The position numbers and the translations under genes were made by a program. Below are positions 6,639-11,987 of a stretch of 64,000 nt of DNA, one piece after another. This DNA is from Candidatus Thorarchaeota archaeon (GTDB lineage: Archaea > Asgardarchaeota > Thorarchaeia > Thorarchaeales > Thorarchaeaceae): NCBI GenBank assembly GCA_003345595.1, contig PRDI01000039.1:1-64000 (forward strand), in the 5' to 3' direction. Each line of letters begins with the position of its first letter. The stretch's first letter is position 1. Below the pieces are notes generated by a model. That model was given only the letters and a program-made list of their open reading frames with translations, was not told where the DNA came from and made no database searches.

Positions 6639-6962
6639 TCATGGTTCATCCACTACGCAGTCTGAGATCCATTCAAGGTACTTTCTCGAGCCCCATTCTA
6701 TGGGCACCACAACGAGTTCAGGTAATTCGTAAGGATGCACTTTCTCCATGGCGTCATGAAGTGCCTCCTGTAGTCTCTTCTCAGTCTTCATGATAAGAAT
6801 CACCTCGTTATCGTTACGTATCTCTCCCTTCCAACGATATATGCTGGTAACGTTGTGAACTATGTTGACACAGGCACAGAGCTTGTCTTCCACGAGCTTG
6901 GACGCGATTCCTTCTGCTTTGCTCTCGGGGCAGGCAGTCAGGGCGACGATGTAGCGGCTCAT
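6639..6962 (-). CDS. cutA: Divalent-cation tolerance protein CutA
   Basis: LVEDKLCACVNI..VTSIYRWKG...E...MKT...HPYELPE signature. Confidence 0.95.
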   Translation of the reverse strand: MSRYIVALTACPESKAEGIASKLVEDKLCACVNIVHNVTSIYRWKGEIRNDNEVILIMKTEKRLQEALHDAMEKVHPYELPELVVVPIEWGSRKYLEWISDCVVDEP

Positions 6963-7033: not shown

Positions 7034-8434
7034 ATGCCGAGGAAGTTTGTTCCCAAAGGAGTGATGCCTGCCCTCGTTACTCCGTTTACAAAGGACGGTG
7101 ATATTATGGAGGACAGCTTCCGTCAGATCATAGATTACACAATCAGTAAGGGTGCCACAGGCGTTGTGCCTGCTGGTACAACTGGTGAGTTTGTCTACAT
7201 GCGAACGGAGGAGCGCAAGAAGCTACTGAAGCTGACAGTCGAGTTTGTCGATGGTCGTGTACCTGTGATTGCAGGCACAGGCCAGAACAGCACAAAGGGG
7301 ACAATCGCTCTAACGAAATACGCAGCAGAGGTTGGATGTGATGCGGCTCTTGTGGTTTCTCCCTTCTACTTGAGGCCGAGCGACAAGGGCTATTTCGAGC
7401 ATTTCACAGCTGTTGCCAACCAGGGAAACCTTCCGGTCATACTCTACAACATCCCCCAGTGCACCTTGGGAGTCCTTCAACCAAACATCGTAGAAGACCT
7501 TGCAGATAACGACAATATTGTGGGTATAAAGGATAGCAGTGGTAACATGGGCTATACTCTCGAGCTCATCCAGAAGCTCAAGGACCGTATGCCGGTAATC
7601 ATAGGACATGACGAGTGTTTTCTCCCGGCAGTGGCAGCAGGGGTGAGAGCTGCAATCATGGCTTCTGCCAACATCATGCCTCACCTATGGCTCGATACTA
7701 TGAAGAAGGTACAGAAGGGCGACATTGAGGGGGCCGCCAGACTCCAGCTTTCAATGCAGACTCTGGCTCGCATAGTGACAAGGTACGGCGGTGCTCCGCC
7801 CGTCAAGGCGGCACTTAAGATGATGGGGATTGATGCTGGGAAATCCCGCATGCCTCTCAACTCAGGAGGAACACTCACTCCGGAGCTCAAGGACGAAATA
7901 CGAGTAGAACTTGAGAAGCTCGGATTAATCAAGGGTGTCAAGCACACGCCGCCATCCAAGGACACTGACGTTGTTCCGTTTCTCGCTGACGTTGGAGTCA
8001 CCGCTGATCACCACGGTGGCATGAGGTTTGGGCGGGGTTCGAATCAGACCGTCGCTGCCAGCATAGTCAGCGGACCCAAGACCGGACCACTCGGTGCGGC
8101 CTTCGTTCAGTTATTGTCCACGCCCAGAGTTGGACATGAGGCCTTGAGTGTAATCCTGGAGCCCAACCTTGCAGTGCGACCGACAAGCATCATGTTGCCT
8201 GTTAGGAAAATACAGTCTCTGCGTCAGGCATCACTGTTCTACGGTCCGGTGCAGTCTGGAGCGGCCAAGGCCGTAGTTGCTCATCTTCGTGCGGCGAGGA
8301 TACCTCAGGCTGCCATCAATGATGAGGTCGTGGTTATGGCCCTTGACGTCGATTTGGACGCGATTGACCGGCGAGCAATCACTGCCGCAACTGAGAATGC
8401 AGTGTCAGCTGCGCTAAGTCAGATATGGAGGTGA
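7034..8434 (+). CDS. DapA/NAL-family class I aldolase fused to a degenerate Fae domain (copy 1)
   Basis: GTTGE, LYNIP, GIKDSSG (Schiff-base Lys); C-terminal GPKTGPLGAAF...GHEALSVILEPNLAVRP...RQASLFYGPVQ..AKAV is Fae-like. Confidence 0.85.
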   Translation: MPRKFVPKGVMPALVTPFTKDGDIMEDSFRQIIDYTISKGATGVVPAGTTGEFVYMRTEERKKLLKLTVEFVDGRVPVIAGTGQNSTKGTIALTKYAAEVGCDAALVVSPFYLRPSDKGYFEHFTAVANQGNLPVILYNIPQCTLGVLQPNIVEDLADNDNIVGIKDSSGNMGYTLELIQKLKDRMPVIIGHDECFLPAVAAGVRAAIMASANIMPHLWLDTMKKVQKGDIEGAARLQLSMQTLARIVTRYGGAPPVKAALKMMGIDAGKSRMPLNSGGTLTPELKDEIRVELEKLGLIKGVKHTPPSKDTDVVPFLADVGVTADHHGGMRFGRGSNQTVAASIVSGPKTGPLGAAFVQLLSTPRVGHEALSVILEPNLAVRPTSIMLPVRKIQSLRQASLFYGPVQSGAAKAVVAHLRAARIPQAAINDEVVVMALDVDLDAIDRRAITAATENAVSAALSQIWR

Positions 8435-8439
8435 TACTG

Positions 8440-9915
8440 GTGTCACGGACTTCTTGGCGATTCAAAGGTGTATACCCCGCACTGGTAACACCGTTCGATG
8501 AGAGTGGGGTCAATGAACAACAGTACCGCACTCTGATAGACCACGTGATCAAAGCCGGGGCCACTGGCATTGTCCCATGTGGCTCGACAGGCGAGTTCAC
8601 AAACATGAGCTTTGAGGAACGTATAGAGGCTCTCCGTATCGCATGTGAAACAGCGAAGGGACGTGTACCTGTCCTCGCTGGAACAGGAGCCGCCTACACG
8701 AACGATGCCGTCAAGCTCACTCGAAAGGCTGCAGAACTTGGTGCATCTGCGGCCCTCGTCATTTCACCTTACTTCTTGAAGCCATCCACCAAGGAGATCT
8801 ACGAGCACTTTGAGAAGGTCGCTGGCTCTAGTGAACTGCCAATCTTCCTCTACAACTATCCGCAGGTCACCGGAGTCAATCTCGACTGGTGGTTGGTTGA
8901 TGGTCTTCGTGAGATTGACGGTATTATCGGAATGAAAGACTCGAGCGGCAACATGGTCAATCTCACGAACATTCTCGTCCGTCGACCAGAGGAGTTTCAG
9001 ATTGTCGTTGGCCACGACGAGATTGCGCTGCCTGCACTGGCAGCAGGTTGTGACGGAGCCGTGCTGGCGAGCGCGAATGTCTTCTTGGATCGCTACTTGA
9101 GAATAATGACCGATCTCTCTCAGGGCGATTTAAAGGAGGCGAGGCTCATTCAACGCAGCATACAGCGGACAGTCAGGATTCTCATCAAGGGTGGAGGCCT
9201 TGCTGTCAAGGCAGCTCTCAACATGATGGGAATTCCCGTTGGCAAGGCGCGAATGCCTTTGATGGACGGTGACCTGCTGGGTTATGATGAGATTGATGAG
9301 CTGAGAGCTCTCCTCGAAGACCTTCAACTCATACCGCGTGGTCCCGTGACGTTCAAGATGGGCAACCGCTCTCTAGTGGCCGAGGCATATCCCAAGGCCG
9401 TGGGAATGACAAGAGATGTTATCGATGATTTGACACTTCTTCATGGAGAATCTTTGTGCGGTGAAGCGCTTGAAGTAGCTCATGTCGACCTCGTAATGGG
9501 TCTGAAGGATGGGCCACTCCAGGCCGCGGTGGCCAATTCAGGGAAACTTGTCGATGGATTTCACTCTTCAAACATAATCAAAGACTTGCGTCCGACAACT
9601 GTCTTCTCATCGACAGTTGCCATCACTGGTGAGGGCCACAGAAAGATGGTGTATGAGATTGCTCAGAAGGCTGTTGCAGATGCCGTCACGAGGACCATCA
9701 CCGACAGGATGATTCCTGAGGAACTTGTTCCTGACTTGGTGATTGTAGTCAACGTCTTCGTGCATCCCAACGCCAATAATCCGCGCAGGGTGTTCTATAA
9801 CAACTTTCGCGCAGTGAGATATGCTATACGCCACGCGCTGGAACGAAGGCAGTCGATAGAAGAGATCATGGCAAGAAAGGAATCTGCGCGGCATCCATTC
9901 GCCTACAATCCTTAA
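8440..9915 (+). CDS. DapA/NAL-family class I aldolase fused to a Fae domain (copy 2)
   Basis: GSTGE, YNYP, MKDSSG; C-terminal GESLCGEALEVAHVDLVMG...AQKAVADAV...VFVHP...ARHPF; GTG start after GGAGGTGA. Confidence 0.88.
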   Translation: MSRTSWRFKGVYPALVTPFDESGVNEQQYRTLIDHVIKAGATGIVPCGSTGEFTNMSFEERIEALRIACETAKGRVPVLAGTGAAYTNDAVKLTRKAAELGASAALVISPYFLKPSTKEIYEHFEKVAGSSELPIFLYNYPQVTGVNLDWWLVDGLREIDGIIGMKDSSGNMVNLTNILVRRPEEFQIVVGHDEIALPALAAGCDGAVLASANVFLDRYLRIMTDLSQGDLKEARLIQRSIQRTVRILIKGGGLAVKAALNMMGIPVGKARMPLMDGDLLGYDEIDELRALLEDLQLIPRGPVTFKMGNRSLVAEAYPKAVGMTRDVIDDLTLLHGESLCGEALEVAHVDLVMGLKDGPLQAAVANSGKLVDGFHSSNIIKDLRPTTVFSSTVAITGEGHRKMVYEIAQKAVADAVTRTITDRMIPEELVPDLVIVVNVFVHPNANNPRRVFYNNFRAVRYAIRHALERRQSIEEIMARKESARHPFAYNP

Positions 9916-10844: not shown

Positions 10845-11987
10845 TTGGGTATTAGCTTGACAGACACCGCTCGCTTGATGAGACTGGCCAGAGATCTGAT
10901 TGCGACAAACTCAGAAAACCCACCAGGCAGAGAAGCTGACGCCGTCCGAGTCTTGAAGGAACACATGGAGGCTCATGGTCTTGCTTGTAGAGAGGTCGGA
11001 CGAACCGAGCGGCCAAACCTGATCATTTCATCCGGCGGCGCAGGGAGAGCTCAACTCGTATTGCACGGTCACCTGGATACAGTTCCTGCGGGTGCAAGAG
11101 AGTTTTGGTCCCATGATCCGTTTGAATCTGAGATAGTAAATGGCAGACTTTATGGTCGAGGCGCCTGCGACATGAAGGGGCCAATGGCTGCATTGGCAGA
11201 AGCTCTTATCGAGTACAGCAAGAAGCCTCAATCATCACCGCTACTCATGCTGGCCACTTCTGACGAAGAGAGTGGATGCATGGGAGCTGAGGACGTTGCC
11301 TTAAGCGGGCAGTTGGCCGGGACCAAGTTCGGCGTGTGTGCAGAACCAACTGATCTCGAGGTCCTGGTAGGCGAACGAGGGATGCTTTGGACTCGTGTTA
11401 GTGCTGTGGGTAAAGCTGCTCACGGGTCCCGCCCAGAAACTGGGTTGAATGCAATCAATGTGTGCATGGACGCTCTTCGGGTGCTTATCAAACGGGGATA
11501 TGCGTATGAAGCCGATCACATGATGGGAAGGCCAACTATCAACATAGGCACGATCAAAGGTGGTATCAGGATCAATGTTGTTCCAGACCAGTGCGAGGCT
11601 CTGGTGGATATGCGCCTTGTCAAGGGACAGAAGCCAGACTCCGTGCTCGGGGAGATGAGGGACCGACTCGATTCTGCGGGCCTCTCGGAGCGCGTGAGCG
11701 TCGAATACGTATTCGGCAAGCCTCCCGTAAAGACGCCTCCTGACTCGGAGATAGTCGCCGTCGCAGTTCAAGCTGTTCGAAAGATAACGGGCAAGACACT
11801 GAAGCTCCGCGCAGCCACTTTTGGAACGGACTGTTCGGTTCTTCAACCTAAGGTGGGCATAATCAGTGTGATTTGCGGACCTGGGTCTATTGAACAGGCT
11901 CACCAGCCGGACGAGTACATCTCGGTGAGTCAGCTACTCAAATCCGTCGATGTCTATCTCGCAATCGCTCGTCATTTCGGCACGTAG
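10845..11987 (+). CDS. M20 family metallo-amidohydrolase (ArgE/DapE-like)
   Basis: HGHLDTVP, GRGACDMKG, SDEE, AEPT, GKAAHGS, AHQPDE. Confidence 0.92.
   Translation: MGISLTDTARLMRLARDLIATNSENPPGREADAVRVLKEHMEAHGLACREVGRTERPNLIISSGGAGRAQLVLHGHLDTVPAGAREFWSHDPFESEIVNGRLYGRGACDMKGPMAALAEALIEYSKKPQSSPLLMLATSDEESGCMGAEDVALSGQLAGTKFGVCAEPTDLEVLVGERGMLWTRVSAVGKAAHGSRPETGLNAINVCMDALRVLIKRGYAYEADHMMGRPTINIGTIKGGIRINVVPDQCEALVDMRLVKGQKPDSVLGEMRDRLDSAGLSERVSVEYVFGKPPVKTPPDSEIVAVAVQAVRKITGKTLKLRAATFGTDCSVLQPKVGIISVICGPGSIEQAHQPDEYISVSQLLKSVDVYLAIARHFGT

Follow-up and report, generated by a model that had tools for sequence, protein, structure and literature searches.

Two coupled aldolase-Fae fusion genes in a Thorarchaeota genome

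The DNA analyzed here (the window) is a stretch of 64,000 nucleotides of contig PRDI01000039.1 from a Candidatus Thorarchaeota archaeon (assembly GCA_003345595.1). Two adjacent genes, named A (P0001) and B (P0002) in the following, each encode an aldolase domain of the DapA (DHDPS) family followed by a C-terminal domain of the family of the formaldehyde-activating enzyme Fae. Both open reading frames (ORFs) are complete and intact (Table 1). The acid-catalyst His strand, the PNL and Gln88 loops and the HPF arm of the Fae active site are not assembled in any single one of the two proteins, but the pair together has them all.

Table 1. Position of genes A and B, their domains and their junction within the window
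Feature	Position	Strand	Basis and characteristic residues
Gene A (P0001, 466 aa), DapA-family aldolase with C-terminal A-type Fae half-domain	7034..8434	+	ORF, PF00701 and PF08714
Aldolase (DHDPS-fold) domain of A	7055..7864	+	GTTGE, Tyr133, Schiff-base Lys (IKDSSG) and Tyr107 kept; Cys at Arg138 (YNIPQCT)
A-type Fae domain	8051..8419	+	Without catalytic His and without C-terminal arm; GHEAL..ILEPNL..P and RQAS..YGPVQ conserved
Coupled A/B junction	8425..8442	+	Sequence reading
Gene B (P0002, 496 aa counted from ATG), DapA-family aldolase with B-type Fae half-domain	8425..9915	+	ORF, PF00701 and PF08714
Aldolase domain of B	8461..9273	+	G(S/T)TGE, Tyr133 and Lys (MKDSSG) kept; Val at Arg138 (YNYPQVT); Tyr107 replaced by Phe (SPYFLKP)
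B-type Fae domain	9445..9900	+	HGE.L, AHVDL (His353, Asp355), PTVTIT, NVFVHP, NNF and SARHPFAYNP arm conserved

The stop codon of A (TGA, 8432-8434) lies inside GGAGGTGAT (8427-8435). Translation of B from the ATG at 8425 results in an overlap of 10 nt with A. An alternative in-frame start of B, a GTG at 8440, is located five bases past the stop of A, and the upstream element GGAGGTGAT resembles a ribosome-binding site. The B orthologues are 491-492 aa long, which agrees with the GTG start. Whichever start is used, the two genes are coupled.

The DHDPS profile PF00701 matched the first ~280 residues of both proteins (E = 1.6e-78 for A and 1.4e-71 for B). The Fae profile PF08714 (cut-off 27 bits) was exceeded by both: in A it matched residues 340-462, covering only profile positions 13-135 of 159 (88.5 bits), and in B residues 341-492, covering positions 2-158 (109.2 bits). 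The Fae equivalog TIGR03126 (cut-off 118.05) was missed by both proteins, clearly by A (78.1) and narrowly by B (118.0). In contrast, both passed the dapA equivalog TIGR00674 (233.2 and 221.2, respectively; cut-off 206.15), and both are labelled DapA (4-hydroxy-tetrahydrodipicolinate synthase) in databases. The Fae-Hps model NF009833 was not reached; only its Fae part matches (60.5 and 90.5 bits; cut-off 274).

The Fae active-site motifs are divided between A and B

The Fae domains were aligned to the Methylobacterium extorquens Fae chain of PDB entry 1Y5Y. In this enzyme methylene-tetrahydromethanopterin (methylene-H4MPT) reportedly binds in a cleft formed by neighbouring subunits, with His22 as the acid catalyst; on binding, Gln88 is said to flip and the C-terminal arm to become ordered. 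A group alignment comprised 121 A orthologues, 109 Thorarchaeota B orthologues, 6 single-copy Asgard aldolase-Fae fusions and 8 Fae domains of Fae-Hps genes.

No Fae motif is lost in the single-copy fusions or in Fae-Hps. The A orthologues keep GhEALtVILEPNL.V.P and SMRQASlFYGPVQSGAA at a conservation of at least 90%, and the EPNL within the former is conserved at 99-100%. At the position of EVAHIDL of Fae, A reads QTVAASIV, with Ala/Ser in place of the His, and no residue of the GE.L..AH.DL strand is conserved. VFVHP and NNF are absent from A, and the protein ends ~30 residues before the HPF arm in 121 of 121 orthologues and in all divergent A-types. The first-pass annotation of this DNA had assigned GHEALSVILEPNLAVRP and RQASLFYGPVQ to A and had described the His motif and the HPF tail as missing; the alignment agrees on all of these. 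Residues E369, E376, P377, L379, P383, P389, R397, A399, G404 and Q407 are invariant in divergent A-types. E-P-N-L, R-Q-A and G-P-x-Q persist across A-types with only 27-60% shared identity.

B shows the other half of the pattern. HGEaL, evAHVDL, PTVTIT, NvFVHP, NNF and SARHPFAYnP are kept at a conservation of at least 90% (109 orthologues), and His353 at the acid-catalyst position is kept in 99% of them. The strings quoted for this copy, EVAHVDL, VFVHP and ARHPFAYNP, are present in the alignment to 1Y5Y. In 109 of 109 Thorarchaeota orthologues a 5-residue deletion replaces LEPNL. Where Fae has FGPAQ, B in the window has YEIAQ, and the consensus of the Thorarchaeota B group is y.vAQ. It had been claimed that B lost both the L.V..PNL..P and the Q..GP.Q segment. 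The deletion of PNL and the loss of R-Q and G-P bear this out, but the last Gln of the second segment, the equivalent of Gln88, is retained. B-types of other lineages lack this Gln88 equivalent. The same split of motifs was found in at least 6 lineages with only 27-50% shared identity.

The A/B tandem is conserved across archaea and Chloroflexota

The host genome assembly comprises 2.73 Mb and is 83% complete; A and B hold its only two Fae domains. More than 100 orthologues were found for each protein, at 64-75% identity for A and 64-77% for B. In a 301-genome Asgard sample, Fae matches occurred in 71 of the 76 genomes of the host's own family, nearly always exactly two per genome and with E values of 1e-23 to 1e-35. 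Canonical Fae (E about 1e-65 to 1e-72) was detected in 0 of these 76 genomes. Both A and B were present in 54 of the 59 own-family genomes that are at least 85% complete. In all 54 the genes are adjacent and on one strand with A upstream (16/16 genera). Other Asgard families carry Fae-Hps, often plus one aldolase-Fae fusion of ~500 aa with a complete Fae domain (195-208 bits).

Divergent A-types were found as well. A Baldrarchaeia contig encodes an A-like protein of 470 aa and, 6 nt downstream, a B-like one of 489 aa. This A-like gene has no His, keeps ILEPNL and MRQAS..GPVQ and is truncated in the tail. A comparison of the A Fae domain with 1.84 billion representatives yielded further fused A-type clusters at 28-41% identity, in all of which the His and the tail are missing and EPNL and RQA..GPxQ are kept. 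A second DapA-like gene directly follows A on 4 of 4 contigs examined for these clusters (the P0263 cluster was left out), and it contains GEA..AH[VI]DL wherever the contig extends far enough. Two scans of species-representative genomes with single proteins as queries revealed the same tandem in metagenome-assembled genomes (MAGs) of a Bathyarchaeota and a Methanomassiliicoccus member, in Baldrarchaeum yapensis and in 14 Chloroflexota (Anaerolineae/Caldilineae) MAGs. In 13 of the 14 Chloroflexota tandems the genes are directly adjacent; at locus L046 a ~300-aa gene lies between A and B. Both genes were found at 17 of the 18 loci of the two scans with enough downstream DNA. The two half-types have thus been inherited together over very deep divergences, even between domains of life.

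In a tree of the aldolase domains, the Thorarchaeota A proteins form one clade and the B proteins another, each with a support of 100. The Baldrarchaeia A protein is sister to Thorarchaeota A (Shimodaira-Hasegawa-like approximate likelihood ratio test, SH-aLRT, 90), and the single-copy fusions are placed between the A and B clades. The root of this tree is unreliable (outgroup branch 8.4). The tree is consistent with a single ancient duplication of a complete fusion and subsequent complementary losses.

The aldolase-Fae pair of archaeal look is common in Anaerolineae and Caldilineae (L028-L040, L043, L045, L046). Its presence in Chloroflexota implies that the pair was transferred between domains, and that these bacteria possibly perform one-carbon chemistry of the H4MPT type. 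The residues at the position of Arg138 in the aldolase domains are swapped in the Chloroflexota pair relative to Thorarchaeota, with Val in A (YNIPQVMD) and Cys in B (YNIPQCAG). A ~300-aa gene follows the A-type gene at two Chloroflexota loci (L046:3480-4400 and L043:3928-4815).

A predicted B:A interface and conservation by face

The Fae regions of both proteins (A 318-466 with B 330-496) were modelled as a two-chain complex. The interaction prediction score from aligned errors (ipSAE) was 0.71 for A:B (runs 0.68, 0.79 and 0.71) and 0.01 for the best of three controls. Of 80 solved complexes 58 attained this mark, as did 2 of 110 mismatched pairs; these counts are rough, as own alignments were used here. 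The model runs share at least 82% of contacts, with a partner predicted local distance difference test (pLDDT) value of at least 79. On the B side, the predicted interface comprises the HGESL strand (340-344), His353, Asp355, residues 393-399, 441/443 and arm residues 478-487. On the A side, residues 354-367, 374-382 (ILEPNLAVR) and 399 take part, along with the helix that follows GPVQ. The score shows likeness rather than binding. The orientation is more informative: two hetero-interfaces are possible, and the model picks the one that joins the His face of B to the EPNL face of A.

Complementarity was examined column by column. Of 42 columns invariant in complete Fae domains, 7 are kept by both proteins, 8 by A only, 18 by B only and 9 by neither. 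The split by face was adopted after the test over these 42 columns had turned out non-significant, and the faces were taken from the contact columns of the predicted A:B model, not from 1Y60 coordinates. Among the 28 columns contacted only on the A side, the canonical residue is found in 15 in A and in 3 in B (p = 0.0013); 5 of these columns are deleted in B. The 33 columns contacted only on the B side show the opposite, with the canonical residue in 5 in A and in 15 in B (p = 0.015). The mean majority frequency in A is 0.78 on the used face versus 0.37 on the other, where 11 of 33 columns are deleted; in B the values are 0.89 and 0.61, respectively. Because the His-side face of A is nearly unconstrained, a canonical neighbour would not be acceptable there, which argues against the canonical closed ring and favours a B:A dimer module.

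The aldolase domains and the pathway context

The best PDB matches of the aldolase domains are DHDPS structures (2YXG and 3HIJ; E = 2e-53 and 3e-49). The class I aldolase signature is present in A and B, with KDSSG (Lys161), YN(I/Y)P (Tyr133) and G(T/S)TGE (Thr44/45). Arg138, the residue of DHDPS that binds aspartate semialdehyde, is replaced by Cys in A and by Val in B, and it is missing in all aligned A, B and single-copy fusion proteins. In the host genome no dapB match over the cut-off and no asd match was obtained at 83% completeness; control genomes did match. A role as lysine-pathway DapA was rejected since Arg138 is missing and dapB and asd were not found in the 83% complete assembly, and the DapA annotation of A and B is most likely wrong.

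In DHDPS, Tyr107 reaches into the active site of the partner across the tight dimer. Thorarchaeota B has Phe at this position (SPYFLKP; residues ~111-117, window 8755-8775). The B-types of Baldrarchaeia and of loci L025 and L026 keep Tyr where the stretch aligned. At first the exchange was read as further evidence of asymmetry in an A:B aldolase dimer; being specific to Thorarchaeota, it is given little weight.

The host genome contains Mch (393 bits) and thrC, the threonine synthase gene (202 bits). Mch is present, and an H4MPT one-carbon route therefore exists in the host genome. Ftr (PF01913) was not found, an absence that says little at 83% completeness. A match to the homoserine dehydrogenase gene (hom) was likewise not obtained in the 83% complete assembly. 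In the Asgard sample hom occurs in 3 of 76 own-family genomes and in 0/19, 0/3 and 0/11 genomes of three other Fae-holding families, versus 20/28, 7/11 and 17/21 in families without Fae, kin genomes in these tallies not being independent. The only other DHDPS-family gene of the host encodes a stand-alone protein of 302 aa that is KdgD-like (GNTGEF, GIKYAFG; contig C24:14185-15093, L022:1471-2379). Its KdgD-like character is a further point against a lysine-pathway role of A and B. This gene adjoins a citrate-synthase-like gene on the opposite strand.

In one pair from a soda-lake sediment metagenome (L024:231-2788), both aldolase domains are without the Schiff-base Lys (ALADSSG, ILDATGD), the YNxP Tyr and GTTGE. 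The Fae half-motifs of this pair are kept (LEPNL and MRQAN..GPAQ in A; GEA..AHVDL in B). Judged from this pair, the Fae module may work without the aldolase.

A proposed heteromeric enzyme with a composite site and its alternatives

We consider it likely that A and B are two subunits of one heteromeric enzyme, in which a B:A Fae module holds one composite site. An ancestral single aldolase-Fae fusion would have been duplicated, each copy retaining one wall of the cleft. B would contribute the N-terminal strand, the acid catalyst His353 with Asp355 and the C-terminal arm, and A the loop with EPNL together with the RQA..GPxQ loop and helix. One composite site would result from the pairing of the His face of B with the EPNL face of A, and the faces not in use would have decayed. 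An alternating A/B ring is impossible with five positions, and given this decay the module is probably a heterodimer and not a closed pentamer. The mismatch between a pentameric Fae and a dimeric or tetrameric aldolase would disappear with such a dimer, and an AB or A2B2 arrangement would agree with the two-fold symmetry of DapA-type aldolase dimers and tetramers. Heteromer and stoichiometry are what we infer from the domain content, the motif partition, conservation, synteny and distribution described above. The first-pass annotation had suggested that each paralogue kept one face of the site in an obligate hetero-oligomer. Strict adjacency with a coupled junction, co-inheritance, the model and face conservation favour complementary halves working as a heteromer, possibly an obligate one.

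As for the reaction, the complex would most probably link a pyruvate-type 2-oxoacid aldol reaction with formaldehyde to the H4MPT-bound one-carbon pool. An example would be pyruvate + formaldehyde <-> 4-hydroxy-2-oxobutanoate, the keto acid of homoserine. Such a route to homoserine, starting from pyruvate and an H4MPT-derived one-carbon unit, is in line with the hom tallies and plausible; to our knowledge it has been described so far only as an engineered pathway. The combined proposal is of an A2B2 or AB enzyme whose Fae ring has collapsed to a heterodimer; its composite site would hand formaldehyde from methylene-H4MPT to a pyruvate aldolase that supplies homoserine and threonine via 4-hydroxy-2-oxobutanoate in organisms without aspartate-semialdehyde and homoserine dehydrogenases, the module having spread between archaea and Chloroflexota. 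As a whole this is tentative and rather doubtful.

Several observations weigh against the heteromer or against these substrates. Complementarity over the 42 invariant columns was not significant (Fisher p = 0.17), and the split of conservation by face is partly circular, the faces stemming from the same model. The complex score, in turn, may reflect memory of the solved Fae homopentamer (1Y5Y/1Y60). B retains 25 of the 42 canonical columns and might act with a remodelled pocket of its own, and the Gln88 equivalent is present in 89% of Thorarchaeota B orthologues. At the Chloroflexota locus L043 no B gene was found within 2.5 kb. Concerning the substrate, no homoserine kinase (thrB) match over the cut-off was found in the 83% complete host genome. 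Asgard family f9 is mixed, with hom in 35 of 68 genomes, co-occurring with the fusion in part of the family. The case for these substrates draws on genes missing from an 83% complete MAG and on tallies by family.

Some of these observations would be explained if B were the sole working Fae, either alone or as a homo-oligomer with a remodelled pterin pocket, and the Fae domain of A a non-catalytic scaffold or regulator. The match of B extends over the entire Fae profile, and its TIGR03126 score is only just under the cut-off; B keeps the His, the arm and, in Thorarchaeota, the Gln88 equivalent, besides its share of canonical columns. On non-interface columns the Fae domain of A is also less conserved than that of B (0.63 vs 0.82). 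A scaffold, however, has no reason to retain exactly those site residues that B lost, namely E-P-N-L, R-Q-A and G-P-x-Q. The EPNL loop is deleted in every Thorarchaeota B orthologue, the B-types of other lineages have lost Gln88 too, and the model sets the retained loop of A opposite the His of B. We therefore regard a B-only enzyme as unlikely. That neither domain activates free formaldehyde, the module serving as a pterin-binding or structural unit for direct hydroxymethyl transfer between methylene-H4MPT and the aldolase or in some other function, would agree with the scores of both proteins below the Fae equivalog cut-off, with an oligomeric architecture that has probably changed, and with the L024 pair, in which the aldolase Lys is lost from both proteins and the Fae motifs stay, so that the two activities are not always coupled. 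But 99% of B orthologues have the acid-catalyst His and the Asp, A has the canonical pocket residues, and the host's own family has the H4MPT enzyme Mch and no other Fae. This explanation appears quite improbable. The non-significant 42-column test, taken alone, would also allow that A and B are recent duplicates decaying randomly, with complementarity arising by chance. Against this, both genes are intact and 64-77% identical across >100 orthologues, the same partition is seen in lineages from two domains of life, and A and B form separate old clades; chance decay is hence extremely unlikely, and pseudogene decay was rejected on conservation.

Relation to known enzymes

The C-terminal domains of A and B belong to the same family as Fae of M. 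extorquens (1Y5Y/1Y60; PF08714, TIGR03126), and between them they keep its site elements, the His22/Asp24 strand, the PNL loop, the GPxQ (Gln88) loop and the C-terminal arm. Fae is one protein that forms a homopentamer (5 chains per PDB entry) whose sites between subunits are all identical, whereas A and B split the site over two aldolase-fused paralogues. Unlike Fae, each of them has one decayed face, and a closed homomeric ring is unlikely. The same two-domain architecture is found in the closest relative, the uncharacterized single-copy Asgard aldolase-Fae fusion, also annotated as 4-hydroxy-tetrahydrodipicolinate synthase. Its aldolase is of the same subfamily (YNIPQ[C/V]T, no Arg138), but its single gene of ~500 aa has the complete Fae domain at 195-208 bits, and the genomes usually also encode Fae-Hps. 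Thorarchaeota, unlike these lineages, have two half-site paralogues and no Fae-Hps.

Fae-Hps of methanogens and other archaea (NF009833) is the closest studied system. There, too, a Fae domain is joined to an enzyme of aldolase type with formaldehyde as its product or substrate, which provides a precedent for formaldehyde hand-over between fused domains. It differs from A and B in that the partner is hexulose-6-phosphate synthase, the Fae domain is N-terminal and complete, and there is a single gene. With DHDPS/DapA (Escherichia coli 1DHP, Methanocaldococcus jannaschii 2YXG), A and B share the signature of a TIM-barrel class I aldolase; they differ in the exchange of Arg138 for Cys/Val, in the Fae fusion and in the lack of a dapB or asd match in the host genome. 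Paralogue heteromers with split or dead shared sites are known, for example, from trypanosomatids (deoxyhypusine synthase and AdoMetDC/prozyme). In these, a homo-oligomer was duplicated, complementary residues were kept and only the hetero-interface is active. Folds and organisms are unrelated to those of A and B, and each partner of the A/B pair has a second, apparently intact catalytic domain. The change from homo-oligomer to heteromer by complementary loss at a shared site is known for other enzymes and is not known to have been described for Fae. A literature search yielded no description of a DapA-Fae fusion, of the A/B pair or of Fae in Thorarchaeota.

If the proposed heteromer is correct, thousands of database entries named 4-hydroxy-tetrahydrodipicolinate synthase from Asgard archaea, Bathyarchaeota and Anaerolineae would carry the wrong label and in fact represent subunits of a one-carbon enzyme that is still undescribed. 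Thorarchaeota metabolic reconstructions would in that case misassign a step of the lysine pathway and overlook a connection of the H4MPT one-carbon pool to 2-oxoacid or amino-acid metabolism. The pair would represent a clean natural case in which a homo-oligomeric enzyme became an obligate heteromer through complementary loss at a shared site. Since sister lineages still have the unsplit, ancestor-like form, the evolutionary path could be tested directly.

Neighbouring genes

In the window, A and B are flanked by a gene for an M20-family peptidase/deacylase (ArgE/DapE-like fold) downstream (10845-11987) and by CutA1 upstream on the opposite strand (6639-6962). Neither gene was seen in the examined loci of other lineages. 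A conserved gene of ~312-327 aa with no Pfam match, which begins with ..KVGIPGRDAYDLPTS.KRFPDG.. and ends with ..DLAIPKP, lies beside aldolase-Fae genes in Lokiarchaeia-like, Baldrarchaeia and Chloroflexota loci (L017:3628-4563, L043:421-1380, L046:1037-1996, L003, L004 and L007). A search of the host genome with a single Baldrarchaeia query (P0244) did not find it. At the Baldrarchaeia locus, a gene of the triose-phosphate-isomerase family (PF00121; L017:7542-8228) directly follows the pair.

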